Shown in pieces: positions 1,688-34,056 of a DNA stretch of 64,000 bases (the first letter of the stretch is position 1; every line of letters starts with the position of its first letter). Source of the stretch: Azolla caroliniana. Taxonomy: Eukaryota > Plantae > Polypodiophyta. Below the pieces are notes generated by a model that had not been told where the DNA came from, ran no database searches, and saw only the letters and a program-made list of their open reading frames with translations. The translations under genes and the position numbers were made by a program. The DNA lies in assembly GCA_043228905.1 (NCBI GenBank), contig JBHGNT010000001.1, forward strand, positions 12,834,001 through 12,898,000, read 5' to 3'.

Positions 1688-2073
1688 TTTTTCATCACCT
1701 TGGTAATTTGAGCCATATTGATTGTTTCTATTGTTCATTGCACAATATAACATCGTTTTTGAAGTGTGGGCAATTAGATAGAGTCACCCTTTGAAACTCA
1801 ATAAATATAAGTGATGTGCATGTATATCTCAATGTTATCTATTTTTGGGCAAGGAAGAACATGTCAAGGCATGATGTAACACGATGGTGAATAACACTTA
1901 CATCAATGTGTTACTCATGGATAAATATTGGATACACATTTTTTGGTGATATAAAATCATTGTTCCTCTATCGATTCTCTTTTAGTAATTCCTAGTTATA
2001 TATTGCAAGTTATATGTATCTAAGTTGATATTTAGACAGAACATCAAGGTTGCCGAAATTGTGAATTTCTAAG

Positions 2074-2169
2074 CTTTGCATTCTTTATACTCTTCAATGG
2101 GGTGCTTCGACGTTTCATGCAAGTCATATGGTTGGCATGATGGCTGCAGTGCTAGTTTCCATGGTTGAG
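2074..2169 (+). pseudogene. Isolated exon fragment of a nucleobase-ascorbate transporter (NAT) gene
   Basis: Translates as LCILYTLQWGASTFHASHMVGMMAAVLVSMVE, followed by a GT donor at 2170. Resembles the plant NAT motif IPYPLQWGAPxFDAGHAFAMMAAVLVSLIE. Neighbouring exons were not found. Confidence 0.8.
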
Positions 2170-2779
2170 GTAAATTTGTCATGTTTAAGTATGTTACTAA
2201 TACAAGAGGCATAATTGAAACTCTATTTTGGTTTTATTTGTTGTGAATTGGATACATGAATTCCCACAATGTGTTTTCATTATGTAACAGTTAATTTGTC
2301 AAGACCAAACCTATCTTTGATCAATATTGTTGTTGAGACCAAACCTTTTAGATTAGATGTTCTTGAATCTAAACCTTTGTGGGTTCCATAGCTTACTTGC
2401 TATGTTTCTTTCGTAGAGAGATTAAGGGCTATGGCTATGGAAGAGATGCTTAAAGGTTAAAAGAATTGTGTGTGGTTGCATTGTAGGAACTTAAGGACTT
2501 AAATGTTGAAGTTTTCTTAGAGAAAAACTCGGTATGTGTTTGTTTTGGCATTGTAGCAACTTCATGTAGTGAAGTTCTTTCTCAAGTTGAATGTTGTGAA
2601 TTATTCTTGCACATCACATGGTATATTCTTGTTATGATATATCTTCTGTTAGATATATCATTTTTCACTTCCATGAAACCATGATATATGCAATGTTACA
2701 TAGGCATGTCAAAGAAGATGGCATTGAAGGTGATCCTATTCTTTGAATGAAGGTGGTGTGAAGACGCACATACTCTCCA

Positions 2780-3440
2780 CGCTCACATACATGAAAATAT
2801 ACATACAAACAAGCAAACATACATTCATACACACACACACACACACAACAAACACATTCTAAACAAAAGAAATGTAGAAAAGAAAAACAAAAAGTACAAA
2901 AATGAAGAACAAAATAAATAAATACTTGTTAAAAATAGTAAAAACAAAAAATAAACACATTGCAAAATGATTGTATGTGAGTGATGCTAATAGTGATGAG
3001 TTTTGGCATCACTACCAACCTATTTTATTGTGACATGTATAGAATACACATTCACATAGATCTAACATGCACATATATAGAACACATATATACATACATA
3101 CATAGACACACTGAACATAGACACATGGCATAATACAATACATACAACACGTGCAATACAATACAATACATACATACATACATAAACATGGAATACAATA
3201 TAGTACATGTATACATACACATGCAATACAATACAATACAATACAATACATAAACATGGAATACAACACAATACATACATACATACACATGCAATACAAT
3301 ACAATACATAGACATGGAATACAACACAATACATACACACACATAACATATACATACATACATACAACCATGCATAAAATATGCCCAACTCATTCAAATA
3401 ATACAATGCAAATTGATATACATCTATAGGATATACATGC
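2780..3440. repeat. Low-complexity (ATAC/CA/ATACA)n compound microsatellite arm
   Basis: Degenerate ATAC/CAATA repeats; the reverse-complement counterpart of the TATG/GT tracts at 13080-13370 and 17317-19380. Confidence 0.9.
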
Positions 3441-3582
3441 ATTTTTCTATGTAAGGGTATTTAAAATAGTTGTTGTCAAAATATATATTGACAATAAGGG
3501 GTATTTTTATTAACTGTTTTTTTACAAAAGGGTTCTAAAATAGTGAAAAAACATATGTATAAGGGGTTTATAAAAGATATCT

Positions 3583-3628
3583 TGAACGCACGTGATACAA
3601 CCTCTTTAAATATAGTGGAGCCCCCGGG
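3583..3628. mobile_element. One terminus of a CCCG-ended DNA element (46-bp degenerate terminal repeat)
   Basis: TGAACgCACGTG...AGTGgAGCCCcCGGG, with the same length and spacing as 19576-19621. Followed by GTTGAC|AT, an 8-bp TSD interrupted by the copia element. Confidence 0.75.
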
Positions 3629-3634
3629 GTTGAC

Positions 3635-6600
3635 TGTCGAATACATGTGTATAATGGACGTATTCACACTATCCCGTTTTGGCCATTTATGTAATTAGCA
3701 TAAAGGGTAGTTGCCCTAAGTCGGTCACTATATATAGTGACCTTGTAACCTTTTTGTAAGGTTGGATGTTGTATTATTGCTTTATGGAATAAAGAGTCTT
3801 TTGTGTCTCTCTCTCTCTCTCTCTCTCTGTGCAACGACCTACAATCTCTCATACGCAGGTACTCAGATGAATCGAATGCTTCTTGATCTTCCGCATTGAC
3901 GACCTTGTCCCTAACATCTGGTATCAGAGCCTGCACAGTAGTCGGTCCTTCAATCCGCTGTCGGCCGTCGTCTCTGCGTTCGGTTTCCTGCGTCATTCGA
4001 AGAAGAGAGAAGAAGAAGAAAAACCAGGTTTGCATCTCATTGCGTTAGATCATCTTTGCTTGGAGTAAGCCAGCAGGTTGTACTCCGTTCCTTGTGATCG
4101 TAACCGCTCGAGGTGAAATCCCCCTGTGCAACATTGACACGATCGTGCTCCATTCGGTTTAACGGCATCCGAAGAGGTAATCAAACGCCGCTCGTTGTAA
4201 CCACTCGGTGCAGATCGGTCTCAAGACAACAACCCCAAATTCGTGCTTCATCTGGCTGATCGACATTCGAGAGGATCAGTTGGATCCGTCTCTCTCGTCG
4301 CTGCAGTCAACCGAAGCAGAATCGGTCCAGATAATCGGTTTCAATAATCGGTATTCGGCATATATATCCGAAGCGAACCGGGCTCACTCCGACTCGGCAA
4401 CATTCGGGAAGACCAGTCGGTTCTGTCCCTCAAGCTACCGGAGTCAACTCGAGCAAGTTCCGAAGCCGAACCGACTCGGGTTCAAATCTGACTAGAACGA
4501 TATCGGGTGAGCCAACCGGCTGCACTCCAACAAGGTTCGTAGTCAACTCCGAACCGAGCTCCGTCAACCGAAACCAAATTTGATGGCATCAACATCCGGC
4601 TCGTCAGAAATGAGTCTACGCAAGTTCGATGGATCGAACTTCAACTTCTGGAAGGAACAAATGCAGGACTATCTCATAGTCAAGGGGCAAATCGATCCCA
4701 TCGAAAATGAAGAACCTCCAGAAGGATACAAACCAATTGAGTGGCAAAAGCTGGACAGAATCGTCCGCGCCACGATTCGGATGCACCTATCGGAATCGGT
4801 ATACTTTACGGTGCAATCGTGTACGACAGCATTCGAACTGTGGAAAACACTGTCGGACACTTATGAAAAGAAGGTCGCCGCAACGAAGATGTTTCTGATC
4901 CGGCGCCTCTACAACTTGCGGATGAAAGAATCCGATTCGGTCCAAGCACACCTCAATGAGTACGAAAGCATAAGCTCCCAAATCTCGTCACAGGGGACGG
5001 CAATCGAGGATGAACTCAGAGCAATGATACTCATGAGCAGCCTTCCCTCATCATGGGAAACTTTCGTCACAACCGTGTGCAACGCGTCAACCACGGCTGT
5101 TAAATACTCCGAAGTCACGAGCGCAATCCTGACCGAAGCAGCTCGGAGAAAGTCTTTCGCCAAAGACTCAACAGACGACGCCTATGTAGTACAAGGTTCG
5201 ACAGACCGATCGAACATACGAGGAAGAGATTCCTCACGGCCGCCGAACAATCAGCGAAGACGGAGCCAGTCACGGGATAACCGAATCTGCAACTATTGCA
5301 AGAAACCCGGACACATCAAAGCCGACTGCCGCGCACTCAAGAACAAGAACAACAAGAAGAGTGGCCGGCATGAGGAGATCAATTACGTCAGCTTCTCGGC
5401 TGATGTACTACCGGACGACCCGAATATACTATCAATCGAAAATCCAGTCGGATCCGAAGTTCTGCTCACGACTGAAGAATCGAGCACATGGCTCTTGGAT
5501 TCGGGCGCGTCATTTCACGTGACTCCTCATAGATCCCAATTTCGGCAATATACGGTCCGTCACTCCGACTCAGTTCGAGTCGGCAACTCACAACACTGTG
5601 ACATCATCGGAATCGGCACAGTAGAGCTCAACCTTGCAGGTGGCTCTACACTTGTACTCCACAATGTCTGACATGTACCCGAGCTCTCAAGGCCATTGAT
5701 CTCAGTCGGACAACTAGATGAAGACGGCATTCGTGCCGGTTTTTCTACGGGAGGGTGGACACTCCACAGGGGGAACCTCCTGCTTGCTAGAGGACCCAAG
5801 ATACACTCCCTGTATCCGTTACATGTTACGCTCAGAGAGGGTAACCTGTTTTTGGTGGATATTCCTGTGTCATCACTATGGCACCGGAGATTAGGACACC
5901 TCAGCAAGGCCGGCATCACGCATCTATCTAGAGCCGGATACATCCCCAAACTCTCCTTCTCCGACCATCAATTCTGCGAGCATTGCCAGTATGGCAAACA
6001 AGCAGCCGTATCACACCCGACATCAGCACCAAGAGAAACGAGACCTCTCGATTTGGTCCACTCGGACGTCTGTGGCCCAATGCCGCATCAGTCTCTTGGC
6101 GGTGCCTCTTACTTCGTCAGTTTTATTGACGATTCGACTCGAAAGGTGTGGGCTTATCCAATTCGCACCAAAGATCGTGTCTTCTCGATCTTCTCCGATT
6201 GGCTCGCTATGGTAGAAAATCAAACCGACCGAAAGCTGAAATGCCTTCGGACCGACAATGGGGGAGAGTTTAAATCCGAAGAATTCGTCAAATTCTGCCG
6301 ACAACGCGGCATCCGACGTGAATTTACGGCACCACACAGCCCGGAGCAAAACGGGATTGCCGAACGCATGAATCGGACAATCCAAGAACGGATAGTTTCC
6401 ATGCTCCAACACTCCGGACTGTCGGATGGCTTCTGGGCAGAGGCTCTACTCACGGCAGTACACATAATCAATATGTCGCCAAGCAGACCTCTAGGACTTC
6501 AAATTCCTCAGGAACTATGGATCGGCAGTAAGCCGAATTACGACAAGCTGAGGATCTTCGGATGCGAGGCGTACGCCCTTATTCCGAAAGATGATCGCCG

Positions 6601-9069
6601 AAAACTTGCACCTCGGTCCAGGAAATGCATTTTCCTTGGATATGGATCCGACGGCGAAATGGGATACCGACTCTGGGACCCCGAACGCAGACAAATCGTT
6701 CGAAGTTCGGACGTTGTGTTCAACGAGTCGGCTATGACTCCATCAGTCGAAAAACCGATCGAAGTCCGAAGGGTAACATTTTCCGATGTGCCGACCCTTC
6801 AAGAAGGCCCCGCTCACAACACACGGTCAGCTTCACGGGTAGCTGAACCTTACACTACCGACTCGGACAACTCTGACTCGGCACAGCCGAATGATTCGGT
6901 TTCGGACCATCCGACCTCGATACCCGATGCGACCAGTCCAATCATACCTCGACGATCCGAGAGACTGTCGCAACCTCCGGAGAGGTATTCTCCTGGAATT
7001 TTCTTCACCGACGCCGGCGAACCGACGTCTTACGAAGAAGCATCGACATCTGTCGATTCAGCCACCTGGCATCTGGCGATGGAGTCGGAAATGCACTCCA
7101 TTCGGGCAAACAAGACTTGGGATCTGGTCGAATTACCTAGGAACCGACGTGCTCTTCCTTGCAAGTGGGTTTATCGACTAAAAGAGACGTCTGATTCGAC
7201 CACCCCAAAGTACAAGGCCAGATTAGTTGCGAAGGGCTTCCGACAAGAATATGGCGTCGACTTCGACGAGATTTTTTCACCAGTGGTGAAAATGACAACC
7301 CTTCGTTTTCTACTCGGCGTAGTGGCAGCCGACAACTTGGAGCTGATTCAGCTAGATGTCAAAACAGCCTTCCTCCATGGTGATCTCGAGGAGGAAATTT
7401 ATATGGAGCAGCCAAAAGGCTTCGTGGCAACTGGCCAAGAACATCTAGTCTGCCGACTCAGGAAGAGTCTATACGGCCTCAAACAGGCACCACGACAATG
7501 GTACAAGAAGTTCGACGACTTCATCCAATCGATCGGCTTCTCCAAAAGCGATGAGGACCATTGTCTCTTCACCAACACAGCTCAAGATGGATCACCCATC
7601 TTCCTCATCATTTACGTGGACGACATGCTAATTTCTGGACGCCACGCGGGCGAACTTGCCGATCTCGTTCGGCAACTGCGGTTGAAGTTTGCCATGAAGG
7701 ACCTCGGTCCGGCACGACACATCCTTGGCATGAAGATTAGTCGGCATCGCGATAAACGACATCTTTTTTTGTCTCAGACCGACTATATCGGACGTGTCTT
7801 GGAACGCTTCAACATGCAATCAGCCAAATCTGCTTCAACCCCGCTCCCCATGAATCTTCGGCTCTCTCAGCGAGACTGCCCGACATCCGGTTCGGAGGGG
7901 GAAGATATGAAGTCGGTACCGTATGCACCGGCAGTCGGCTCCCTTATGTACCTGATGGTCGCGACACGGCCTGATATTTCTCACGCCGTAGGAGTCGTTA
8001 GCAGATTTATGCACAATCCTGGCCGATCGCATTGGAACGCAGTCAAGCATGTGTTCAGATATCTGGCTGGCACAAAAGACCACGGCATTCTTTTCGGTCC
8101 GAACCGAACCTCAGGCGTAGTCGGTTACACCGACTCGGATTTCGCCGGCTGTATAGACAGTCGGAAATCAACAACCGGATACTGCTTCAAATTCGGCAAT
8201 GGAGCAATCTCGTGGAAGTCGAAACTTCAGGAGTGCACAGCGACCTCAACGACCGAAGCAGAATATGTAGCTGCGTCCGACGCAGCAAAAGAAGCTTTGT
8301 GGCTCGGTCGGCTGGCGCACACGTTTTGACAAGTCGACCATGACTCGGCTCCAGTTGTCTACAGCGACAGTCAAGGTGCTGTTGCCTTGTCGAAAAATCC
8401 GGTTCACCACAACGCCTCCAAACATATCGACGTTCGATATCACTTCGTTCGGGACTGCGTCATTTCAGGGAAAATCGGTCTAGAGAAAATATCCACAACC
8501 GACAATGTCGCAGATGGAATGACCAAGTGTCTTTCGGCAGACCGTTTTCGGTCTCTTCGGCATCAGATGGGCGTAACGACAAACCAGTCCGGTTAGAGCC
8601 GGACACAGAGCAGGATGGTTCCCGACAACCGACATCAGTTGCTTAATGATCGGCTTCAACTGTTCCGACCCGACCAGTTCGGTCTTCTGCCTTCGGACCC
8701 TGCCGACTCGAACAAAGCTGATATGTCCGAGAACCTAAGTCTATACCTGTAATCTAAGATAACCCATGTATACGCCCATTACGGGGGAGTGTCGAATACA
8801 TGTGTATAATGGACGTATTCACACTATCCCGTTTTGGCCATTTATGTAATTAGCATAAAGGGTAGTTGCCCTAAGTCGGTCACTATATATAGTGACCTTG
8901 TAACCTTTTTGTAAGGTTGGATGTTGTATTATTGCTTTATGGAATAAAGAGTCTTTTGTGTCTCTCTCTCTCTCTCTCTCTGTGCAACGACCTACAATCT
9001 CTCATACGCAGGTACTCAGATGAATCGAATGCTTCTTGATCTTCCGCATTGACGACCTTGTCCCCAACA
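3635..9069 (+). mobile_element. Full-length Ty1/copia LTR retrotransposon (Tnt1/Tork-like), young but with two nonsense mutations
   Basis: LTRs 3635-3916 and 8790-9069 (TG..CA) differ only by one visible substitution and one TC unit. TSD TTGAC at 3630-3634 and 9070-9074. PBS TGGTATCAGAGC (tRNA-iMet) 3919-3930. PPT 8781-8789. Confidence 0.97.
4580..8596 (+). pseudogene. Copia gag-pol polyprotein (Gag CCHC, PR, INT, RT, RNase H) broken by two in-frame TGA stops
   Basis: CNYCKKPGHIKADC, WLLDSGAS, LVHSDVCGP / RTDNGGEF / NGIAER, YVDDML, YTDSDFAG, KHIDVRYHFVR. All three ORFs are in one frame, separated by TGA at 5669-5671 and 8327-8329. Confidence 0.95.
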
Positions 9070-9261
9070 TTGACATCATGTATTGCACAATTTCAACATT
9101 ATCCAAATGGTTCGGATTGTGGCTTTTATGTGATGAAGACTTTACAGATGTTGGTCGAGGAGTTCTTACGAGGATGGATATCTCCGACGTTTGTAAGTGT
9201 GATTGCAAATGGATGTATCATGTGGATTTTGTATAGTTGTGTTCTTATACATATTTGGTGA
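9070..9261 (+). pseudogene. C-terminal half of a Ulp1/C48 SUMO-protease domain (catalytic Cys)
   Basis: Reads TSCIAQFQHYPNGSDCGFYVMK, matching the Q-x-N-x-x-DCG-x-Y-V motif of C48 peptidases. Confidence 0.75.
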
Positions 9262-9619
9262 TAGGGCACAGAGATGTGTTCACCAAATTTGAAGTGGATT
9301 TATTTTGGATTCAACTCGAAGGGTGGGCACAAAGGGTACTAGGATTTCCAACTACGACCGATGGCCCCATATTGTAAATTTTGTAAAGCTGCCATGGCCA
9401 TGGAAATTTTGTATACAGTGGATATTATAAATATGGTCATATAATTTGTATCCGAGAGGATATTGTAAATGTGGTCTTACATTTTGTAAATGACGGAATT
9501 TGTAATTATGGTCAACTTTTGGTGTACGACATATTTTTATATGGCGAAAAGACGACTCATTCATTGTATATCGAAAATACTTATTAATGGAAAAGTTACC
9601 AAAACTTTTGTTTTAGAAA

Positions 9620-9900
9620 AGGTTGTTTATCTCAAGTGTTTGTTTAGTGTCTTTTATCTCAAGTGTTTATCCGTTGTCTTTGATTCATAGTTTGATAAAC
9701 GTTGAGTGTCTTTTATCTCAAGTGTTTATCTGTTGTCTTTAAGTCATAGTTTAAGTGTTATTTATGTGAATTGTTTATCTCTTGCCTTTGATTCATAGTT
9801 TGAGTGTTTTTTTATCTCAAGTGTCTTTGATTCATAGTTTTAGATGTCTTTTAATCGGAACTCTCGTGTTTTTTATTCAAAGATCTGTTGTTTTGGACTC
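9620..9900. repeat. Degenerate tandem repeat with TTTATCTCAAGTGT and TTTGATTCATAGTTT units
   Basis: Several visible imperfect copies downstream of the Ulp1 fragment. Confidence 0.75.
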
Positions 9901-9960
9901 ATAATGTGATTGTTTTTTATTTACATATCAGTTGTTTTTTGTGTTTGCTATTTTTTAAGT

Positions 9961-10260
9961 CGGTCACCAAACCTATATTAATTAGTTCATCCAATTGTTT
10001 TAAATAAGGTCACCCAACCTTTTTTAACATGTTGGCCCAACCTATTAATCAAGTGGCCCAACCTATGAATCAGGTCACCCAACCTATTAATAAGGTCACC
10101 TAGGACCTATTAATCAGGTTGCCCAACCTGATTAATGGGGTCATCCTTTCTATTATAAGGTCTCCCAACATATTAATCAGGTCACCCAACCTATATTAAT
10201 CAAGTCGCCCAATTTTTTTTTCATAAGGTCACCCAACTTATTAATCAGGTCGCCCAACCA
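9961..10260 (+). repeat. Cluster of GGTYRCCCAACC motif repeats at about 20-24 bp spacing
   Basis: About a dozen copies, e.g. GGTCACCCAACC and GGTTGCCCAACC. The same motif lies on the minus strand at 21999-22190. Confidence 0.85.
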
Positions 10261-10874
10261 AATTTTAAGAAATGGCCAAAAGAATAGTCATATTAATGTG
10301 TTTTTAATCACACAGTTTGAGTTAGTATAATCCCTAAACCCTCGTTTTAATAAAAACTAATTCATCCTCCAATTAATAAGATTCACATCTTATTCATATT
10401 TTCATAGAGGCAACTTTGATTCATACTCCAATTAATTGCATCTAATTCTGAAATTTTCAATTAATCACATCCTACTATCTGATTAATCACATCAAGATTT
10501 AGAAGTTCACTATGATGAATCCAAATGACCATGATTTTATCACCTCATTGTATGATTCTGAGGATGGTTATGCGTCATCATACTCCACAACTATTGACGA
10601 AAAGTTGGACTCATCTACGTCCAACGAAGTGTTGGCGTCGCCTACATCTGACAAAGACTGTGAGTTGACTTCATCCGAACGGGAGGAGGAGGTTGATCCC
10701 TTCATCTATTGTTTGGCCAGGTCCTGGTATTTTTCTTTCACAAGAGGTATGTATGATTTGATGCTTAAAGATTTATCGGGTCAAGTTAAGGTAATGTTTG
10801 AAACATTAAGCGTCATCGCAAGGGGTGCACCTCTCAATCTCCATGCATGGAGGCGCATGAAGAGTCGTCTCATG

Positions 10875-11068
10875 TGTTGAGAGTCAAACTCAATTTCCCA
10901 TAGAGATAGGTTTCACACTAGCTCATAGACATACCAGGCTAGTCTTGTAAATAGTAGAAAGGGCCCTTGCCCTAGTTTAGTTGGTATTTAAACCAACCCC
11001 TTGTAACTTAGTTACTATTGGAAGTATTTTGGTTAATGTAACATACAGTCTTTGATCTCTGTCTTAAG

Positions 11069-11105
<37 letters not shown>

Positions 11106-11106
11106 G

Positions 11107-11141
<35 letters not shown>

Positions 11142-12517
11142 TATCTTCTGTTGCATTACACAACCAACTCCATTTATTTACATGGTATCAGAGCGTGTGG
11201 TTGCTTAATCGAATCTATTCAACTGTGTTGTGATACACGCCGAAGATCAACAGAATCGGCTCATCAACAGAGAAGAAATCAACATAATGAACACTCAGAT
11301 GGGAAGCGCTCTTCCTTCCGAGAAGCTTGACAGAACGAACTTCACATCTTGGGAATACAAGATGCATCAATACCTTGTCAGACAAGGTTATTGGAGCTAC
11401 ATTGAAGGAGCTCACGAAACTCAACCCAACCCAACACACGCCGACTATCCCGCTTGGGAGCAAGCCACAAGTCGTGTGTTGTATTGCCTATATTCGAGAT
11501 CATATGGTTGGCTATATTCGAGATTCGAAAACGCCGCGAGAAGCTTGGGGAAACCTCAAGAAGATTTTTGCGGCCAACATGGCTGCACGAAAGCTCCAGC
11601 TTCGATAGGAGCTAAACAACATGCAACAGAGGGACATGTGAATCAAAGGCTATACCTTAAAGATCAAGGAGATGTGAGATGCCCTCAGATCGATTAATGT
11701 CATAATCGACGATGACGAGATGGTGCAAATATGCCTCGGTGGCTTAGCACCCCGATTTGGCTCGATTAGATCGATCATCCTTGCAAGGGAGAACCCTCCT
11801 TCATTTTTCGATCTCCAATCAATATTGTTGGTTGAGGAAAATCATGCCTCACAAAGGAGCAACGCACTAGAGGGTCATATGCTCTACTCCCAGTCAGATG
11901 ATAGAAGAAATTGCGGTCGTGGAAGTAGAGGTCGATTCAAACAAGGCCGTAATGGTCGACAGACTCAAGAGCGTAATTCCCACCAATGGCAAGCAGATAG
12001 GAACAATCCTCGAGAGTTCGGCAGAAGGGGGAGTCATCACGCCGGACCAAGCAATTGTAATACCCTGATCGAATGCGGGTATTGTGGAAAACACGGCCAC
12101 TATGAAGAGGAGTGCCATAAAAAGGTACGAGACTCAGCTTCAACTAGCTGACAGTTCACGAACTACACATCAAATTCCGACTACGACAATCGTTGCAAAA
12201 TGTTTACAAATTACGCCACGAATTCCAACTACGGTGACCATGGCGGAATGTTCATAATGAGGCACGAAGCACACTCGATGTCAGCACATGCCTCAACTAG
12301 TGCCTCCGCCTCTAATAACGTATGGTTTGTTGACTCAGGAGCATCCAACCACATGACGTCACATGAAGATTGGTTTCGAGAATTATGAAAACCCGAACGA
12401 CCCGAATATGTCGAGACAGGAGATAACACGACTCATCCAATATAGCATATTGGGAATGTCCCATTCGGAAACAATGGCAAAAAAACCTATCTCTAGAACG
12501 TATTGCATGTCCCTACC
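10875..12517 (+). mobile_element. 5' half of a Ty1/copia element: LTR, PBS, degenerate gag and protease, truncated
   Basis: LTR 10875-11182 (TG..CA, contains GT/CA microsatellite). PBS TGGTATCAGAGC 11183-11194. gag MNTQMGSALPSEKLD, CGYCGKHGHYEEEC; PR WFVDSGAS. Ends abruptly after NVLHVPT. Confidence 0.92.
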
Positions 12518-12864
12518 AACGATCTGACGATTGTCTGCAGAGAAGGCAACGCTCAGAACGTCTTTAGAGTGTCTAGTGAATCGACGGTTTGTGGCACCGG
12601 AGTAGAGATCCCACAGATGAAGCTCTCCATCCCAGCTCCCTGATACTGATAGAGCAAACTTCCTATCGGAAGAGATGGCAACATCTTATATGAAGTGACC
12701 ATGACCTGTGAGGCATTTCTTCGTATTGCCATAATTTTCGTCTCGGGTGAGGGACCACACAACAAGAAACTTGTCTCGAGAAGCAGAGACAATCATGTAC
12801 CCATCGATGATGGGGCAAGAAATGGAGGTAAGCCAATTGTTGTGGCCGCTGAGTTTTCCACCAT
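12518..12864 (-). pseudogene. RACK1: RACK1 (WD40 ribosome-associated scaffold) 5' fragment, pseudogenised
   Basis: Manual translation: [109 protein letters not shown]. Unmistakable RACK1 WD1-WD3. ATG at 12864, one stop, and a deletion/frameshift after the start. Confidence 0.93.
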
Positions 12865-13077
12865 GGTTTCGATCTGTCTCTGTCTCTATCTCTGTCTCTC
12901 CCCTCTTTCTTGCCCCACATCAAAATATGTATACTCCCCTCCCTTTCATTCTCTTCATCCCCCCCCCCCCCCCCCATTTTTTGCTAAAACACGAATGTAA
13001 TCCCCCTCCCCCTTTTCTTCCCCCCTTTTTATGAAACAATTAGCATGACTTTGTCACGCGTTTTAAAAATAATGTTG

Positions 13078-13079
<2 letters not shown>

Positions 13080-13121
<42 letters not shown>

Positions 13122-13374
13122 ATGTGCCTTACGTACGTATGTATATTTGGTGTGTGTGCATATGTATGTATTATATTGCATGTGTTGTATGTATGTATCT
13201 ACTATATGGGTAATTGTGTATGTTCTATGCATGTGCTTATGTATGTATTGTGTATATGGCATGTGTGTATGTATGTATTGTATGTACAACATGTGAGTGT
13301 GTGTGTGCGTGTGCACGCGTGTTCTATAGATGTGCTTATATATGTATTGTATGTATATCATGTGTCTATGTATG
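13080..13374. repeat. (GT)n/(TATG)n low-complexity tract
   Basis: Direct reading; continues after the nested gypsy element at 17317. Confidence 0.9.
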
Positions 13375-16300
13375 TGTGAAAGTGTTTTTAGAATCTAAGC
13401 CATTGAACATTAGGAGAATATAAAGTATAGATAATTCACCTTTTGAGGATAAGAACACGAACTAAGACCTTAGGGAAGAAGTCAAAAGTAAAAGTACGAG
13501 ACCAAGAGAAAAGTAAAAAGAGAAAACGCAGACTATAAAAAACAGTAAAAATAGAATGGTCATAACTCCCTCGTTGTTTATCCAAATATCACGTTTAAAT
13601 ATGGATTAGAAAGCTTGTAAAAAGAGCTTTCTATAGCTTTTTAAATCGCTTAATTTGGATATCGGATGAGGGAGATATGACGATTAGAAGGTTGATGTGT
13701 CATAGCTAAAAATAGGGAGATAAAAAGCTTCTAAAAATAGCATGAACGTGGATAAGAAGAGGAAGGTTATAAAAGAAGAAGTAATATTAGTGAGAAGGAA
13801 AAAGAGTGAAGGCCAAAGAGTGGATGAGGAGTGTTAGGAAGAAGTGTCTTTGTGGAAGAGGAAGTGTCTTAGAAGAGGAAGGTCTTTGGTTTTAGTTCAA
13901 TGTGGAGTTTGTCTCCTTTGTATTCTCTTGATGTTGGAATATCAGAATATTCTTATTTCTTGCTCGCTTTCTCTATCTTTTTTCTTAGTTTCTTGAGTTA
14001 TACTCTCTAATCATAATTACCTAGAACTATATAATATATTATGATTTTCAACTCCATCTAATCGGTTTGATCAAGCCCTCATATAGTGTATAACTATCTA
14101 TTATCTTATACATTCTATCATTTTTGGCGCTCCAGGGAGGGTCGATCCTTTCCGTATAGGAAGAGAAGTTATCATTTAATTGTGTTACTATATTACATTA
14201 ACTTAGCTATGCAATTTGCATTTTCGGGTGAAAGAACACAAGATGCTGGTGCCTTTTTGGCATGCTTTGAGCATCATGCCATATCTATTGGACGCATCAC
14301 CGACAACGAAAAGTTGCCCTTGTTGGTAGCTACATTCTATGGTCGTGCTCGAGATTGGTATGACTCTCTTCCGCAAAATGAACAAGGAGAATATCAATTA
14401 TTGGTGCATCAATTTCGTACAAGATATATTCAATGGAAAAGTGCAACTGAGGTAAGGGAGGAGCTTTTTCAACTAAAGATGGAATCACCTTTTGGTTTTT
14501 TAGAGTATGAACGAAATTTCCAAGAATTGTGGACGACGTGGATTCGTCTTCGTGGTGGCACCGAAGACGAGTGGTTTAAGATAGAACAATTTAAGGTGGG
14601 CCTTGATATGCATTTCCGTTTGGAGGCAAGCTTGAAGGATCCAACGACTTTTCAAGCTCTTCTCCAAGTTTGTCAAGATTATGATCGACAAGTGAAGATG
14701 ATGAGTTCCATGGGGGATCCCCAAATGACGGCTTTGGGTGCAAATTTGATGCCTCGTGCCAACTTTCAAGCCTCATCTTCAATTGTGCATGGGGGACAAG
14801 TGTTTCCAAATGTGTATACCACCACAACAATAAACCCAACAAGTATATCCCAAGAAGTTGAACAAGTGAGGAGTGAACAAGATACCATGGCATTGGTAAA
14901 TCGGCGCTTTGATGAAGTGATGGCCCACTTGCAACAATCCCAAGCAATTTCCAACACTATTCCCGATGGTGGTGGCTCTAGAGGGCATCAAGGTGTAATT
15001 TGTTATTCTTGTCAAGAGGAGGGACACTCAACAAGATGTCCTCATCGACAACAAAGAGGTATGGAAAGAGACATGTATGAAGTGCAACGGAATGGACAAC
15101 GACCTATCAACAATGGAGTCGAAGGAGGCGAATCCATAACACTTCCAATGACTCAGGTTCCTACAATTCCTCATAATGTGAATCTTCTTAATTTTATTGA
15201 TGATAGTGATAGTGCTTGTGAAGTAGCTCTTGTGAAAAGGACAAGAGCCTCGCAAAAGGAGAAAGAAGTTGAAGGAGAATCTAGTGACTCAAGACAAAAG
15301 AAGAAGTCTAAGGAGAATGAGAAAGAGGACAAATTGAGAAGGAGACACTCTAGAAGGAAGATAAAGATGAAGGATATTCCTATGGGAGAAGGTGTAGAAT
15401 CTTTCAATCGGAAGCATGAATTGATTTCAAGTGGACCAAGGATAACATGGCCGCAACTTCTCCAATTATCTCCCACATTACGAAAGGAGTGGGGGCGACT
15501 TGCAAGTATTCGCCAAAGTCGGAAGACTGTGCATTATGTGGGAATCGTGCGAGTAGAAGATCGAAAGGACATACGACCCACCATCCCCGTCTCCATCAAA
15601 GGGTTTCACATCAAAGATGCGTTGGTTGATAGTGGTGCTAGAGTAAGCTTGATTTCTGAATTTGTGGTAAACAAAGTGGGAATTCCTATTAGTAGGTCAT
15701 CTTCAACAAGGGTGGTTGTAGTAGATAGTGGAGTGGTGCATTGCACAAGCATAGTGGAGGATGTGTTCATCAAGTGTTTTGGAATAAGAGGAGAAGCTTG
15801 CAACAAATACCACATCAACTTGAAGGAAAGTGTATCAATTTCCCCAAAGCTTCGGCAATTGAGTGTTGAACAAAAGGAAGAATTTATGCAAGAGTTCAAC
15901 GCATGGTTACAAGAAAGTTCCAATTATAAGATGGAAGATTTGAGGTGTGTGTCACCTATAGTTTTGGTTCCAAAGAAGAATGAGATCAATTTCAAACCCT
16001 TGAATGATTCGACCAAACGAGATGAATTTTCACTTCCTTCTCGAGATGAGATTGTCGATAAAATGGTTGTTTATACAAAACAAGGTAGTGTGGACAATAT
16101 GTTGTGCCAAAAAGGATTTCATGTGGATGATTCAAAGATTAACATAATTACAAAGATGACAATTCCGACAAGTCTTGAAGCTTTGAAAGTATTTGTGCAA
16201 AAGGTGCGCTCGCTCGAAAGATTCATTTATATGTTGACATGCTTACTGCTATCAAGAGTGATGTATCCCATGGCCCTACTAGTCTTTGGAGAGTTAACGA

Positions 16301-17316
16301 AGACATAATGATTGTGGTAACCTCTTTCTTTGTGTTGACAAGGAGAAAGATGATGATGGAATTGTCAATGTGTGTGTGGGTGTGTCTAGGAGTGTGAGGT
16401 TTTTCCTACCGATTAGCGGGGGTTTTACTCACATCTTTTTATTTTCTTTTTATTATATCTCTCTCATTGTCTATAGCCAAGAGATTGGCGAGAGAGCTTT
16501 TGTTTGTTAAGTACTGCCAATAAGTGCTTCGCCATAAATGGCTTAGCCTCTAACAAGGGGGAGGGCTAAATGTGAAAGTGTTTTTAGAATCTAAGCCATT
16601 GAACATTAGGAGAATATAAAGTATAGATAATTCACCTTTTGAGGATAAGAACACGAACTAAGACCTTAGGGAAGAAGTCAAAAGTAAAAGTACGAGACCA
16701 AGAGAAAAGTAAAAAGAGAAAACGCAGACTATAAAAAACAGTAAAAATAGAATGGTCATAACTCCCTCGTTGTTTATCCAAATATCACGTTTAAATATGG
16801 ATTAGAAAGCTTGTAAAAAGAGCTTTCTATAGCTTTTTAAATCGCTTAATTTGGATATCGGATGAGGGAGATATGACGATTAGAAGGTTGATGTGTCATA
16901 GCTAAAAATAGGGAGATAAAAAGCTTCTAAAAATAGCATGAACGTGGATAAGAAGAGGAAGGTTATAAAAGAAGAAGTAATATTAGTGAGAAGGAAAAAG
17001 AGTGAAGGCCAAAGAGTGGATGAGGAGTGTTAGGAAGAAGTGTCTTTGTGGAAGAGGAAGTGTCTTAGAAGAGGAAGGTCTTTGGTTTTAGTTCAATGTG
17101 GAGTTTGTCTCCTTTGTATTCTCTTGATGTTGGAATATCAGAATATTCTTATTTCTTGCTCGCTTTCTCTATCTTTTTTCTTAGTTTCTTGAGTTATACT
17201 CTCTAATCATAATTACCTAGAACTATATAATATATTATGATTTTCAACTCCATCTAATCGGTTTGATCAAGCCCTCATATAGTGTATAACTATCTATTAT
17301 CTTATACATTCTATCA
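13375..17316 (+). mobile_element. Non-autonomous Ty3/gypsy-derived LTR element (gag-protease only, TR-GAG-like)
   Basis: 746-bp LTRs 13375-14120 and 16571-17316 appear identical. TSD GTATG at 13370-13374 and 17317-17321. PBS TGGCGCTCCAGGGAGGG at about 14125. PPT AAGGGGGAGGG before 16571. Confidence 0.95.
14209..16308 (+). CDS. Gag, aspartic protease and residual RT fragments in one open frame (no YxDD, RNase H or integrase)
   Basis: FSGERTQDAGAFL, GRARDWY, CYSCQEEGHSTRC, LVDSGA, SPIVLVPKK, FKPLNDSTKRDEFSLP. The first ATG after the PBS is taken as the start. Confidence 0.8.
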   Translation: MQFAFSGERTQDAGAFLACFEHHAISIGRITDNEKLPLLVATFYGRARDWYDSLPQNEQGEYQLLVHQFRTRYIQWKSATEVREELFQLKMESPFGFLEYERNFQELWTTWIRLRGGTEDEWFKIEQFKVGLDMHFRLEASLKDPTTFQALLQVCQDYDRQVKMMSSMGDPQMTALGANLMPRANFQASSSIVHGGQVFPNVYTTTTINPTSISQEVEQVRSEQDTMALVNRRFDEVMAHLQQSQAISNTIPDGGGSRGHQGVICYSCQEEGHSTRCPHRQQRGMERDMYEVQRNGQRPINNGVEGGESITLPMTQVPTIPHNVNLLNFIDDSDSACEVALVKRTRASQKEKEVEGESSDSRQKKKSKENEKEDKLRRRHSRRKIKMKDIPMGEGVESFNRKHELISSGPRITWPQLLQLSPTLRKEWGRLASIRQSRKTVHYVGIVRVEDRKDIRPTIPVSIKGFHIKDALVDSGARVSLISEFVVNKVGIPISRSSSTRVVVVDSGVVHCTSIVEDVFIKCFGIRGEACNKYHINLKESVSISPKLRQLSVEQKEEFMQEFNAWLQESSNYKMEDLRCVSPIVLVPKKNEINFKPLNDSTKRDEFSLPSRDEIVDKMVVYTKQGSVDNMLCQKGFHVDDSKINIITKMTIPTSLEALKVFVQKVRSLERFIYMLTCLLLSRVMYPMALLVFGELTKT

Positions 17317-18122
17317 GTATGTATGTGTTAATGTTTGTGTGTGTGTGTGTGTGTGTATTTTCTATATATGCATATGTATGTATGTATTGTATGTATCATA
17401 TGTGTAGCATGTGTCTATGTACGTATGTATGTGTTATGTGTGTGTGTGTGTTCTATATTTCTACATATGTATGTATGTATTATGTATTGTATATATAGCA
17501 TGTGTCTATGTATGTATGTGTTATGTGTGTGTATTTTCTATTGATGTACATATGTATACATATTGTATTGCAGGTGTATATATGTATGTGTGTGTATGTA
17601 CATATTGTATTGTATTGCATGTGTGTGTATGTACATATTGTATTGTATTGCATGTGTGTGTGTGTGTTTATGTTCTTTACATGTGCATATGTATGTATTC
17701 TATGTATGGCATGTGTGTATGTGTTATATGTGTGTATTCATGCATACAATACAATATATACACACACACACACATACAACATGCACCACATACATATATA
17801 CACATGCACGTATGTATGTGTGTAGGTATGTACATTTGTATTGTATGTATGCATGCATGTATGTACATGTATGGATGTAAGTTGGTAACATTTATAAATG
17901 TATCATTGTAGGCATGTGTACGTATGTACACAATGTATGAATGATATATGTATGTTCATGTACGAATGCATGTATGTGTATATATGTAATATGTATTGTA
18001 TTTATGTATCTTTTCAAGGTATTTTCGTGTTTAGTATGTGTATGGCTCATATATGGATGTATGTTTGCAATATGCACATAATATATATGCATATATCCAA
18101 CGTATGTGTAAGTATACATATA

Positions 18123-18160
<38 letters not shown>

Positions 18161-18776
18161 CTTATAAGTATTGTAATTTGTATGACCCTGTATTACCTAT
18201 GTATATATATGGTGATATGTGGAATATGTATGTATGTATGTATCTGTATACATATATGCATATGTCCATGTACATGATTCGATGTGTTTGGATGTGTGTT
18301 TATAATATGTGCATAATATGTATGTATGTGTATGTGTATGTATATATGTACTATTACATTGTGTATGACCATGTGTGTATTTGTGTTTTGTGTATGTGGT
18401 GATATGTAATAATGTATGTACATATGTAATGTATGTATGTGTGTAATATGTACGTAAGATGCACTCATATATATGATGTGTGTGAATGTATGTAAATATT
18501 TAAGTATTGAAGTTTGTATGGTCCCATATAACCTATATATATATATATGGTGATATGTGGAATAAATGTACATATGCAATATATATAGGAATGTGCTATT
18601 TGCCCCCCCTAAAATAAAAAAAACCTTTGGCTATTTTGGCCCCCCTATTTTGGCTAAACCACCACCACACATTTTGGCTATTTGCCCCCCCCCCACCCCC
18701 CCCCCCCCAAGTTGTTTTTTTTTAGGGGGGGCAAATAGCCAAAATGGAGGGGCAAATAGCGCATTCCTATATATAA

Positions 18777-18833
<57 letters not shown>

Positions 18834-19335
18834 ATAATGTATCTATATATGTAATGTATCTATGTGTATGTAAATTTGTATATTGTGTAATATGAATGGA
18901 TTATATGATATGTAGCATGTAATTTATTTATGTGTTTGTGTGTGTGTATATATATATATATAACTTGTTTGTATGTATGTAGATTTGTAATACATATAAT
19001 ATGTCACTATACGTATTTATGTGTATGTGTATGTGTGTGTATATATAATATGTAATTTTTTTATGTATGTATATTTTTTGTGTTTGGTATGTATATATGT
19101 ATTTGTATATAATTGTGTGCATAATAATATATGTGTGTAATATGTAACATACAAAATATGTATGTAGCATGTATGCATTTACATATATGTATTTGTGTAT
19201 GTATTTACATATGGTAATATATATTTGTACATATATTCATGTTTAGTCAGTATGCATTATAAATGTGTGTAATGCATGTATATACATATTCATGGATGTA
19301 ATGTTTGAATGTAGGTATATGTGCATGTATGCATG

Positions 19336-19367
<32 letters not shown>

Positions 19368-19380
19368 TGTATGTATGTTA
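17317..19380. repeat. Long (TATG/TG/TA)n low-complexity arm
   Basis: Direct reading; source of many spurious Cys/Val/Tyr/Met-rich ORFs. Confidence 0.9.
18588..18767. mobile_element. 180-bp MITE inserted in a TA tract
   Basis: TIRs GGAATGTGCTATTTGCCCC / GGGGCAAATAGCGCATTCC. Internal TTTTGGCTA and TAGCCAAAA repeats. Flanked by TATATATA on both sides. Confidence 0.85.
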
Positions 19381-19575
19381 CTCCAAAATTGACTATTGTT
19401 TGCATAATATATTCTTTACTATCTAATTGAAATATCTAATATTTCATGGGCTTATGTAATTTTTTTCTATAGCGTAATTGATAACACCCTTATGTAAATA
19501 TATTTTTTATGTATTTATTAATACCCTTATGTCTATATATTATGTATCTCAATGGTTAATTTAAACCCCTTTTAA

Positions 19576-19621
19576 TGAACTCACGTGCTATCATACAAGT
19601 TTTGACAGTGAAGCCCTCGGG
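19576..19621. mobile_element. Second terminus of the CCCG-ended DNA element
   Basis: TGAACtCACGTG...AGTGaAGCCCtCGGG followed by ATGTCAAC (19622-19629), the reverse complement of GTTGACAT. Confidence 0.75.
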
Positions 19622-19629
19622 ATGTCAAC

Positions 19630-21350
19630 CCTCAAACACAATGGTGTGGTCTGACGGTTCACTAGAAATTGTCTGAATCACGATATCTGCAAGACTCCGC
19701 ACGGTGCCAGTCACCTCGTTGTTTAGTGGATCGCAAAAGACTACTGCATTGGTTAGCTTAGAAACTATGTGCCACATCTTTGTCCACAACACCCAATGGC
19801 CCTCGACCACGATCGGAATGAAGATGAAATCATGCTCGGCCACCTTCCTGATGATGTCTCGCCCCTCCGTTGTTAGCTTGTGTAGTTGCACCCATAGTGG
19901 GACGACTATGGTAAACTGTTCTGACACCTCATGTGGCAGCGACTACTCCATCCACATGGTGAATAATGTCATCATCCATGTGGATGCCCTTTCTCCATCC
20001 TTGCACATTGTCTCAATTTGCGACTCTGTAACATCAACGGCGATATCGAGTCGTGCGTTGGTCAGCTGATACCTGTATACATAAGCATGCATGCATCATG
20101 AATCGAGCCACAATTTATGATGGATAGAGAATACAAATTGTAATCCACAAATCATCAACCTAACAAAATGTTTGTCTAGTGTTTGGATCCATGTTCTGAC
20201 GGCCTTGGCATATGCTCAATTTTTATCGTGGCCACATTCGGTTTAGTGTCATCTAAATCTGATGTTAATGGGACAACATCTGTGTTTGAGTCCACCTCTT
20301 CCATCTAACTTGCATTTTCGACCATCTCCGTCTCAATGGCGTCGTCACATCGGATGGGTTTTGAGCCTCTGTTGTATCAGTGGAAACACCACACTCTTCG
20401 GTGGATATCCCCGCCTTTTTACACTGTTTCCCCATGAATAGACACATGTTATTATTTAAATTCTGACAATAAACTCTCCAACACTAAAAAAGACTGAAAG
20501 GCTCGCTCATACTTACATAAGAATCCAATCTTGAGGCAATCTTCTTCTTCAACATCTCCAACTGTTCATCCTTTTTGGAGTCATAGATGGACATCTCATG
20601 CTCCATAAATCTCGCCACGAACTCTGCCTCTATGTTGATTTGGAGTTTAACTGGAGTGGAGTTGAACCTCAAAACAACCCTAACCATCAACTTCCGGATG
20701 TATGATTGCCGATTTCTGTGGTACTTGATTTCGGGGTCCATGAAACGCTTCAGCGATCTTTGGCGCTCATAGCTATTGAAGCATGCCCCTGGAGTACCCT
20801 CCTCCTCCTCTATCTGCATCCCTCGTGGCAACATTATACATGTTTCCATGTTGCATTTTTTGCGATACCACTTTGGTAAGAGGCAGCAATACTCAGTCAC
20901 AATACATGCACGAGCCTTGTTCCCCTTTGCATCTCTTCCAACCTTATACAACGAGTTTGGGATCTCACCATCTATTGTTTATGTGTTAGATATGCTAGAC
21001 CATTTGTTACATAAAGTTTTAGATAATACAGTGAGACCATATCCACATACCATTTGGAGGAGCATCTTTGTCAACTAATGCTAGGCCCTGTATGGGGTCA
21101 ATCCGAGGACCATGAACCCCTAGTGCCTGATCCATGCTCTTCCCACCCTTAGACATGTCGGTTGCACAACATCTAAAATGTCTTCTACTGAAAACCCTTT
21201 AACAAATCATCAACCAACATACATGTATCACACATCATTACCACTAGCATTGCAAAATTGGTTCGTCACATACCTCTCTTCGATTGAATATATGCCACCA
21301 TTATTGGAATCCCACTACTCTTTGTACTTGGACCTAGTAGCCATCTACAT
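19630..21350 (-). pseudogene. N-terminal, multi-exon part of a Ulp1/C48 protease-domain gene (transposon-associated type)
   Basis: ORF 19625-19927 contains IFIPIVVEGHWVL (catalytic His) and VVFCDPL (Asp). Upstream exon-like ORF 20484-20951 ends at a GTAAGT donor. The 5' limit is approximate. Confidence 0.7.
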
Positions 21351-21998: not shown

Positions 21999-22190
21999 CG
22001 GTTGGGCAACCTGTTTCATCAGTTGGGTGACCAAAACACCGAATGGATTTGGGTAACCACAACACTGAATGGGTTGGGCGACCATGTTTTACTATGTAGG
22101 TTGGGCAACCACAATAGGTAGGTTGGGCAACCTCTGACAGGGTTGGGCGGGTGACTGAGGACTTAGAGTTGGGTGACCTCTGCCAACTTT
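21999..22190 (-). repeat. Second cluster of GGTYRCCCAAC motif repeats, upstream of the Ulp1 gene
   Basis: GGTTGGGCAACC and GTTGGGTGACC copies on the + strand. Confidence 0.85.
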
Positions 22191-22437
22191 TTTGGTTGTG
22201 CATTTTTTTATTATCCAAATCAGACAATGCAGATCGCAATGGGTTCTTACTGCTTAATAAACAGTAATGATAATACACATCAACGGAATCAATTAAGTAA
22301 CCACCGCCGCTGTAACTAAGGTCTTACCACTCTTGGTCTCCTTTTCCATTCGCCATGCTTTGAGCAACCCACACCATCTATGGCCGCAATTCCTGCACCA
22401 GCCCTATTTATGATTTGGTGTATAATAGACACAGCGA

Positions 22438-22796
22438 TGTATGTATGGATGTATGTATGTATTGATGGGAAAACAATCGTCAATCCACAAGAAAGGAATA
22501 CGCTGAAATATACAACTCTTCATCAGTAGGAGTTGTACGGGGTGGTATAAGGGTAAAACATGTTAAAGGGGTTGTTCAGTATGTGTAATGTATATGAGTG
22601 TGAGGATGAGTATGTGTGAGCACATGCACAATTATGTGCATGTGACAAGAATGTAACGGACATATTATTTGTCGTTACATTATGTATTATATAAACCCCT
22701 TATGGGGCATGTAATGAATATAGTTTTTCCCCCTCTCATTTCGTGTCATTTCCTATTTGTCTTTCTCTCTTGCTCTCTCTCTAACATAACCCCCTT
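22438..22796 (-). mobile_element. LTR remnant with adjacent polypurine tract
   Basis: Minus strand reads AAGGGGGTTA then TGTTAGAGAG from 22786, with a TATA-like motif. The left boundary is approximate. Confidence 0.5.
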
Positions 22797-22809
22797 GGGA
22801 GGGGGGTGA

Positions 22810-23275
22810 CTCTCTATTGTCGACTCTTTGACTCTCGGTTCTTGACCCGAACAGTCAGCTCCTCCTTGTCGTCGACTATCGGCAAACTCCCCCGTCACTC
22901 TTGTGGGAGGGAATCGGTCAGTCCTGTCTTTTGTCGATGGACTTAGAGTCTGTCCATTTGCTGGTTCTTTGCAAGCATGTCAAATCCATTTTTGTCGGTA
23001 TGGATCTTCATGCGAGTAAACTCTCCTTGTTTGACTTTTTCCTGCAACTAGTGATACCTCCTCTATATATGCTTAGTACGGGAGTGGTATGCAACATTCT
23101 TGGCTAGATGTATGGCACTTTGGTTGTTACAATGAACCAGGAACTCCCTTTGCTTCATCCCTAGCTCGCTTAGAAAGTTTCTCATCCAAATCACCTCTTT
23201 GCCAGCCTCTACCGTTGCCATGTACTCTGCCTCTATGGTCGACAAGGCCACAACTTTCTGCAATCGTGACTACAC
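22810..23275 (-). mobile_element. Duplicated copia 3' end (RNase H tail, PPT, partial LTR)
   Basis: ORF VALSTIEAEY..HSRTKHI. The sequence is a diverged copy of 23330-24125 without the MITE. Confidence 0.8.
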
Positions 23276-23668
23276 ATCGATATTATTAGTATTATTATAA
23301 TTATAATAATAATCGACAATTAATCAACCGACTCTCTATTGTCGACTCTTTGACTCTCGGTTCTCGACCCGAACAGTCGGCTCCTCCTTGTCATCGACTG
23401 TCGGCTCTTCTCGACCCGAACAGTTAGCTCCTCCCACCAGAGGGACATATTTCCAACAAACTCCCCCTTCACTCATGTGGGAGGGAATCAGTCAATCTTG
23501 TCTTCTGTCGACAAAGTCTAAGTCTGTCCATGGGCAGGTTCTTTGTTAGCATGTCGGATCCATTTTCTTCGGTATGGATCTTCATGAGAGTAAACTCTCC
23601 TTCTTCGACTTTTCCTTGCAATTAGTGATACCTCCTCTGTATATGCTTAGTCCGGGAGTGGTATGCAG

Positions 23669-24088
23669 TAGGGATCGGCAATGGCTCGGCTCAAGCCTAA
23701 AACATTTGGCTAAAGTGGCTTAGCGGCTCAGCTTAGGCTTGAGCCTACCTTAACGGTTTGAGCTCAGCTCGGCTCGACTCGAGCCTCCCAAACCAGTTCA
23801 AACCGGTTAAGCCGTTTAAGTGATTTAATTATAATAAAATTATGAAGTTCAATATAAAATGTAATAATATTATGGTATGAAGTTGAATATTCATTGTAAT
23901 AGTATTGTTGTTTTCTCCCAAACCGGTTCACAAACCGGTTTCCAAGCCGTTTCCCAAGCCGATTCACAAACTGGTTTAGGGATTGGTTTGGTTCACATTT
24001 GAAAACCCCTAAACGGTTTAGGCTTAACTTGTTTGGCTTGGATAAGGCCAAACTGGCTGAGCCTAAACCGAACCCTTGCCGATCCCTA
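23669..24088. mobile_element. hAT-type MITE (420 bp)
   Basis: TIRs TAGGGATCGGCAA / TTGCCGATCCCTA. 8-bp TSD GTATGCAG / GTATGCAA. AAACCG-like subterminal repeats. The empty site is visible in the duplicate at about 23087. Confidence 0.92.
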
Positions 24089-33269: not shown

Positions 33270-33329
<60 letters not shown>

Positions 33330-33961
33330 ACACACACACACACAGTTACAGTGGCAACTACCTTCTCAAACTATACAACAATAATGATTAACCACACCTA
33401 TAAAGTTTGCCCTAGTTGTATTTATACTTATACAACTTTCTGGCTATTTACATACATAGCCCACATGGGGCACATTTAGATTATTTACATATATGGTCTC
33501 CCAATTTCGGTTTTGGTTTTCGATTTCCGATTTCGGCCTCTGCCGAAATACTCATCGACTCCATGGGAATCAGTTCTCCCCTTTTTCCTCGATTTGAGCT
33601 TCACTTCCCATTCGAAGGGACCTGTTATCCAACACAATCCCTTTTTTCATTGTGTCCATATTTGCCCACAAATAGTTCCATAATACTTATGAGACAAGCA
33701 AAGCAAGCATGTGGTCAAGCCTCATTAGGATGCTCATACTATGAAATGTGTCGATTTTGAGGGTGTGCACAATTGACCTTTTGTGCTTCCTCTATGAGTT
33801 TCTTCTAGTTTGATAGTGTAATTGGCACATCAAGCAAGATAGTAAATATTAGAACATAGAGAATAATATGGACATTGGAGAGTGTTCATAATTAGGTAAT
33901 TAACTAGGGTTAATTAGGGTCTTATTATGTGAGTATTGATAAAGCAACAGAAATTATGTGA

Positions 33962-34056
<95 letters not shown>

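Follow-up and report, generated by a model that had tools for sequence, protein, structure and literature searches.

A gene-carrying, probably inverted DNA transposon with CCCG ends in Azolla caroliniana and its possible mobilisation by a P-superfamily transposase

The element and its host site

The stretch analysed here (the window) comprises 64,000 nucleotides (nt) of Azolla caroliniana, positions 12,834,001 to 12,898,000 of contig JBHGNT010000001.1 (assembly GCA_043228905.1). Between positions 1688 and 19629 it holds a DNA transposon that carries pieces of a RACK1 gene and of a NAT (xanthine/uracil permease) gene and lies in a relic of an Ulp1/C48 protease gene, broken by two nested long terminal repeat (LTR) elements and a probable inversion. 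The two 46-bp ends, terminal inverted repeat (TIR) A at 3583-3628 and TIR B at 19576-19621, both lie on the minus strand with the same spacing, and 29 of their 46 positions match in the window. End A starts with CCCGGGGGCTCCACT and has a CACGTG box at positions 35-40. The terminus of end B is set at 19621 by diverse contigs from sequencing runs, which depart there into unrelated flanks (5, 12, 9 and 7 contigs in runs X1, X2, X3 and X5, agreement 0.42-0.50); 4 further contigs depart at 19622 in run X3. These four runs represent at most three samples, and the evidence from beyond the window consists of such contigs and a pattern scan of metagenomes.

After end A comes GTTGAC (3629-3634, plus strand), then a copia LTR element (3635-9069) and then TTGACAT (9070-9076, plus strand). 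Without the copia and one of the two copies of its 5-bp target-site duplication (TSD), the sequence reads GTTGACAT, and end B directly adjoins the reverse complement of GTTGACAT (19622-19629, minus strand). One copy of the 8-bp TSD of the transposon is therefore split, with its first 6 nt before the later copia and the remainder after it, while the second copy is intact. The stretch duplicated in the window is 11 nt long (GGGTTGACATC) and is compatible with an 8-bp TSD if the ends are CCCG, or with a 10-bp TSD if they are CCG. The latter was rejected because the contig departure point and the paired ends found elsewhere give 8. Both the two equally spaced ends and the 8-bp TSD had been proposed in the first-pass annotation, made from the letters alone, and both are borne out.

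An Ulp1 homologue (P0001) aligns with residues 1-141 to 20044-19622 on the minus strand and with its C-terminal part to 9075-9339 on the plus strand. The 5' half of the host relic is located at 19630-20089 (minus strand, 72% identity to residues 1-141) and the 3' half, with the catalytic Cys region, at 9077-9339 (plus strand). In uninterrupted Ulp1 paralogues with a single site, as the first-pass annotation had anticipated, 9, 20, 10 and 6 contigs run from the 5' half directly into the 3' half. A second copia is also split, at 1687/1688 and 12518/12519, with about 690 bp absent relative to an uncut copy. Its 3' half (integrase end, SH3 and reverse transcriptase; Pfam RVT_2 and SH3_retrovirus) occupies 1-1687 on the minus strand, where homology to the uncut copia starts at 1687/1688. 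Its 5' half (LTR, gag and protease) occupies 10874-12518 on the plus strand, the start being approximate, and other copies run past 12518 as copia.

Flipping 1688-12518 restores three things simultaneously, and the arrangement of the sequence suggests that the inversion, which had also been claimed before and has its breaks at 1687/1688 and 12518/12519, is likely to be real. It is very improbable that the inversion is an assembly error or that the two ends come from two separate insertions. The right junction 12518/12519 has no bridging contig among those listed, as an error would have it; this was counted as evidence neither way. The two breakpoints divide both a single Ulp1 gene and a single copia, there is no N gap nearby, and an assembly error would leave the nature of the element unchanged. 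Two insertions agree poorly with ends that are one A-type and one B-type and share one 8-mer. The element rebuilt without the nested Gypsy-type element measures 5,098 bp. The earlier estimate of about 5 kb without nested elements holds for the rebuilt element, but only as a minimum because the inversion also deleted DNA; for the same reason the RACK1 and NAT pieces need not have adjoined.

Inwards from end A the element consists of the A subterminal region (3431-3582), the left microsatellite arm (2824-3430, CATA/CA on the plus strand), an interior block (2346-2823) and the captured NAT piece with intron-like flanks (1688-2345, plus strand). From the other inversion break towards end B it consists of the RACK1 5' coding piece (12519-12864, minus strand), a (GA)n-rich leader (12865-12960, minus strand), the inner part of the right arm (12961-13374), the nested Gypsy-type element, the right microsatellite arm (17317-19380, TATG/TG on the plus strand) and the B subterminal region (19381-19575).

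The nested copia (3635-9069, plus strand) has LTRs at 3635-3917 and 8790-9069 with 278 of 279 aligned bases identical and a 5-bp TSD, TTGAC. It sits exactly within the 8-bp duplication of the DNA transposon, so that its own TSD is part of the 8-mer. The Gypsy-type element (13375-17316, plus strand) has identical 746-bp LTRs (746/746) and the 5-bp TSD GTATG. Its interior holds only gag-protease and a degraded pol, and it is inserted in a TATG tract. The near identity of both LTR pairs indicates that the two insertions are recent.

The family, its cargo and its acquisition

The metagenome scan gave 24 further ends, 12 left-type (A) and 12 right-type (B), all starting with CCCGGGGGCT and surrounded by unrelated flanks; the scan pattern imposed most of the terminal bases but not the flanks. 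Among the 23 ends that have a flank there are 21 distinct flanking 8-mers, with purine at position 1, pyrimidine at position 8 and A/T at positions 3 and 6 as a tendency. One locus with a 1-nt flank (L013) was left out of the TSD pairing and one with 78 nt (L007) out of the end profile. In 132 A x B comparisons an exact 8-mer is common to two pairs, L002 with L024 and L019 with L007, each within one assembly. When lengths from 4 to 12 are compared, both pairs match at 8 only, and two matching pairs were obtained in 0 of 20,000 random draws of 132 comparisons. With a single 8-mer the empty site of L002/L024 reads as an unbroken copia RNase H frame. Further copies with 8-bp duplications, on which the first-pass annotation had staked its proposal, are thus present.

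All 24 other ends have G at position 5, where the scan pattern also permitted A; the A in end B of the window is therefore a private change, and the family terminus is CCCGGGGG. Likeness of the two window ends to the family consensus is 87% and 91%, at the low end of the family range. Across the family, A and B ends coincide over positions 1-15 and 35-46, the second of which contains the CACGTG box, and diverge between these segments (30/46 in all); the likeness between the two TIRs stops at about 46-48 bp. Inside 200 nt of both window ends there are seven [TA]AAGGG motifs, compared with 0.38 expected per 400 nt, confirming the TAAGGGT-type subterminal motifs described earlier. The distances of the AAGGG motifs from the end are fixed in the family but unlike on the two sides (62, 96 and 127 nt for A; 51, 94 and 131 nt for B), and the motifs on both sides share one orientation along the element. 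The element is polar, since TATG lies on a single strand in both microsatellite arms; foldback-type arms were rejected because both arms of L008 have TATG on the same strand.

A third end was not found in the window by a fuzzy scan or by nhmmer. The region 22420-22720 has facing TAAGGG/CCCTTA motifs and a short TATG tract which loosely resemble the subterminal motifs, and a terminal repeat was not found there; the motif pair at 22548/22697 was rejected as another end (nhmmer E 3.2). In viral contigs there were 0 matches for the composite end and 2 for the 17-nt end, regarded as chance. So was the 1 match in prokaryote genomes, in a bacterial metagenome-assembled genome, which fails the fixed-spacing pattern.

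The family is abundant and has moved recently with cargo. L002 and L009 are 99.9% identical over 1,600 nt with different flanks, and L008, L017 and L019 are 97-98% identical, again with different flanks; since near-identical loaded copies occupy different sites, cargo-bearing copies have transposed. The summed contig depth over end B is several-fold above that of the Ulp1 host, a depth that is not a copy number.

The middle of the element is a mosaic that varies among copies, and in other copies, too, cargo lies inside such ends. The RACK1 piece of the window begins at the start codon and contains a frameshift and a stop; it matches plant RACK1 with E 2.5e-47, in accordance with the first-pass reading. 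Its GC content is 48% and that of the arms 28%. The NAT exon (2074-2169), with AG before and GT after, was also identified correctly: relatives that are 70-77% identical have PF00860 and end the exon at the same place. A word-index search gave no match for NAT; a HMMER library search did. The NAT piece was detected in none of the 24 other loci. Another NAT pseudo-exon, P0004, has the same derived residue and likewise reads through into the intron, and the junction between RACK1 and the arm is bridged by one run-X2 contig with 7 base differences, so the cargo is not unique to the window. The X2 contig may be an allele of the window copy. The interior block 2346-2823 is common to 6 of 12 left-type loci at 71-78% identity, has no Pfam match and is either older cargo or backbone.

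The leader at 12865-12960, between RACK1 and an inner arm shared with L005, L008 and L019, marks the slot where the cargo varies among copies. In L005 the slot held by RACK1 in the window has a glycine-rich RNA-binding gene (4C7Q, E 4e-31). This gene (3821-4345, minus strand) is near-complete with a leader and reads through what we take to be the position of the angiosperm GRP7 intron; a retrocopy or an RNA-templated capture is possible. L010 carries a plant leucine-rich repeat piece in the opposite sense. Many A-type copies share a two-exon piece with intron that is presumably IQD-like, and L021 has what we take to be a serine-acetyltransferase-like piece; both rest on motifs that Pfam and PDB did not confirm. 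In line with the first-pass annotation, no transposase was found: no family scored above cut-off in the window frames 1688-2802 or in 104 interior open reading frames (ORFs), most of the other interiors being partial and the window copy having lost a segment.

TIRs with an exact 8-bp TSD at many sites, differing cargo, loaded copies that have moved and a transposase that was not found together make this a real Pack-type family. The cargo was probably captured by DNA-templated gap repair that switched template at (CT)n tracts. Introns retained in the cargo indicate a DNA template. Template switching at microsatellite microhomology fits because, in all 4 independent interiors that extend to the B arm, a (CT)n/C-run tract marks the joint between cargo and arm, and because the RACK1 and glycine-rich RNA-binding pieces each open with a (GA)n leader and a start codon. 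The L005 cargo is about 700 bp within a backbone otherwise continuous in L008, and capture as filler therefore fits better than fusion of neighbouring copies.

A transposase supplied in trans would bind the bipartite ends, that is, the terminal 15 bp, the CACGTG box and the subterminal AAGGG motifs. This DDE enzyme would excise the element and insert it with an 8-bp stagger, and the break from excision, or an internal breakage, would be repaired by gap filling. The new strand might at times switch to host genes at shared (CT/GA)n tracts, so that genomic pieces with introns are copied in and amplified by later jumps. At the locus studied here, insertion in the Ulp1 relic would have been followed by the two LTR insertions and by an inversion with deletions that broke the element. 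A more specific version, 'Pack-P', is put forward tentatively, at slightly less than even chances: the microsatellite arms would steer gap repair to microsatellite-rich leaders and introns, and mostly same-sense pieces would be stacked behind one end and spread by transposition, with a spliced template possibly used once.

The transposase and its alternatives

The interpretation favoured here, by a modest margin over even odds, is that the element represents one dead and inverted member of a non-autonomous, multi-copy cut-and-paste family with CCCGGGGG ends, an 8-bp TSD and variable cargo, moved in trans by a P-superfamily transposase. By analogy, the P superfamily appears the likeliest mobiliser, with rather better than an even chance. 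P elements have 8-bp TSDs (7-9) and short TIRs with internal sites and unlike ends (PMC7776569; PMC3698922), as in the Drosophila P element and derivatives such as BuT5 (PMC3698922), and they capture outside DNA by gap filling (PMC8277862). The Azolla family resembles them in its 8-bp TSD and in short TIRs with internal sites and unlike left and right ends, features that are not unique to P, and gap filling is deduced for it. Donor cleavage by P has a 17-nt stagger and a GTP cofactor (PMC7776569). Repbase sorts non-autonomous elements by TSD length and first 11 bases (PMC4455052), and the family is not filed here as a P member.

The same element and capture process could instead depend on a divergent hAT transposase, a Pack-hAT with atypical termini, and this is unlikely. 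TIRs of hAT elements start with CAG or TAG, whereas the 24 ends and both window ends start with CCCG and their flanks diverge directly outside. The preference of hAT for T2/A7 in the target is also absent from the 8-mers (T at position 2 in 16 of 48 symmetrised counts). The 8-bp TSD, the short imperfect TIRs and the repeated subterminal motifs do fit, Pack-hATs with 8-nt TSDs are known in maize and rice (PMC8903248), and hAT TSDs and ends are variable (PMC12730594). None of the 104 interior ORFs has a hAT domain. A Pack-MULE with short TIRs and an 8-bp duplication is quite improbable. MULEs typically have a 9-bp TSD and long TIRs; here the TSD is exactly 8 and never 9 in both independent pairs, and the TIRs, with 30 matches in 46 positions, cease to resemble each other at about 46 bp. 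In favour of a MULE, gene capture by TIR elements is classically associated with MULEs, which are also the most common active superfamily in plants (PMC12973397), and the RACK1 and glycine-rich RNA-binding cargo represents 5' gene ends that are GC-richer than the arms.

A non-autonomous partner of Zisupton/KDZ, Merlin, Novosib or an undescribed DDE superfamily would be somewhat less improbable than a MULE and a little less likely than hAT. The host relic encodes Ulp1, a KDZ-associated domain, but Ulp1 is part of the host element and not of the transposon inserted in it. One weak CxC2 match in L012 points the same way (E 0.0056) and was rejected as sub-threshold, with 17 bits against a cut-off of 27 in one of 104 queries. 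Zisupton yields 8-bp TSDs and Merlin 8-9 bp; Merlin has 5'-GG ends, unlike CCCG, and Kyakuja has CA..TG ends with a 7-bp TSD. CACTA was excluded because its CACT(A/G) ends and short (2-5 bp) TSD are both lacking here. The first-pass view that the ends fit no common plant superfamily is upheld by the failed MULE, CACTA and Merlin comparisons and by the hAT consensus. Its suggestion of a possibly undescribed family is probably correct, and with P, which it did not consider, as the likeliest mobiliser, no undescribed superfamily has to be invoked.

Several observations weigh against mobilisation by a P-superfamily transposase and capture by gap repair. Known P ends begin with CA, whereas those of the family start with CCCG, and the family differs further from Drosophila P in its plant host, in a transposase that was not seen and in its natural multi-gene cargo. 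When 1,007 plant genomes were screened with 17 transposase profiles, P among them, active clusters emerged in seven other superfamilies only (PMC12973397). No transposase with these ends was found in the sequences examined. The only contig with both ends (L008) lacks a TSD; it is likely to be chimeric, one half being 97% like L019 and the other 99% like L021. The 24 metagenome loci may come from a relative of the species in the window. Several internal junctions have no microsatellite, and the microhomology at junctions was judged from the element side, as the parent genes were not located. The read-through of the intron site in L005 is left unexplained by DNA-templated capture unless the donor was intronless.

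CACGTG is the G-box, a site of plant bZIP/bHLH proteins, and both ends retain it at positions 35-40. A host bZIP dimer binds the ends of Drosophila P according to the title of a reference in PMC7776569, and the G-box in the Azolla ends may, speculatively, parallel this binding.

Surroundings, related systems and implications

The element carrying Ulp1 has GGTCACCCAAC(C) repeat arrays near both sides (9962-10259 and 22001-22180), which are co-oriented once the inversion is undone. For a host ORF at 20484-20978 no homologue and no Pfam match were found. Small insertions are nested at 22808-24123, where there are a diverged 286-bp duplication as well as an exact 35-bp direct repeat flanking a segment whose ends are inverted. 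Tracts of (TC)n(CA)n and (TG)n(GA)n in inverted orientation, separated by about 620 bp at 33253-34053, may represent a solo LTR or a small foldback. The sole N gap of the window (100 bp) is found at 47759-47858 and is followed by a 150-bp match to 36397-36546.

Like the Pack-TYPE elements of rice and maize (Gisby and Catoni 2022, PMC8903248), the family is non-autonomous with TIRs and a TSD, carries host coding pieces and forms clusters of related copies. That article treats Pack-MULE, -CACTA, -hAT, -PIF and -Mariner, and the CCCGGGGG termini match none of these five superfamilies. The kilobase TATG/CA arms on one strand are a further difference, and, in contrast to the tandem-insertion fusion model for Pack-TYPE elements, some cargo here is placed in an otherwise intact shared backbone (L005). 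As in multicopy animal Pack-TIRs (Tan et al. 2021, PMC8277862), captured pieces are amplified by later transposition and the breakpoints suggest microhomology, but here a single copy stacks pieces of several unrelated genes, and the content of the cargo slot changes from copy to copy of the family.

Gene capture in such plants is not itself new, since bulk capture by transposable elements has been reported across vascular plants including pteridophytes (PMC13477047), and the mechanisms have been reviewed (PMC13317346). A full-text literature search gave, among the records listed, no account of this family or of plant Pack-type P elements; supplementary TIR tables could hold similar ends. The table in PMC9033089 has no P for land plants among the rows listed, and the available portions of PMC9804982, PMC12477816 and PMC10575402 contain nothing on the terminal consensus or the GRP intron position.

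In grasses and Arabidopsis, gene capture is well documented for TIR transposons of five superfamilies. Because the ends of the Azolla family fit none of the five, standard annotators would overlook or mislabel it. Since the family is abundant, has moved recently with its cargo and has a variable cargo slot with a visible junction signature, it provides numerous natural replicates in which to ask whether Pack elements acquire DNA by filler gap repair or by tandem fusion. If the link to P is true, it would join plant exon shuffling to a transposon system in which capture by gap repair has been shown experimentally, and it would extend P to land plants, where this kind of gene-shuffling transposon was not found described. 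If 'Pack-P' is also true, P-superfamily transposons, unreported in land plants in the literature search, would have given rise to an abundant exon-collecting family.

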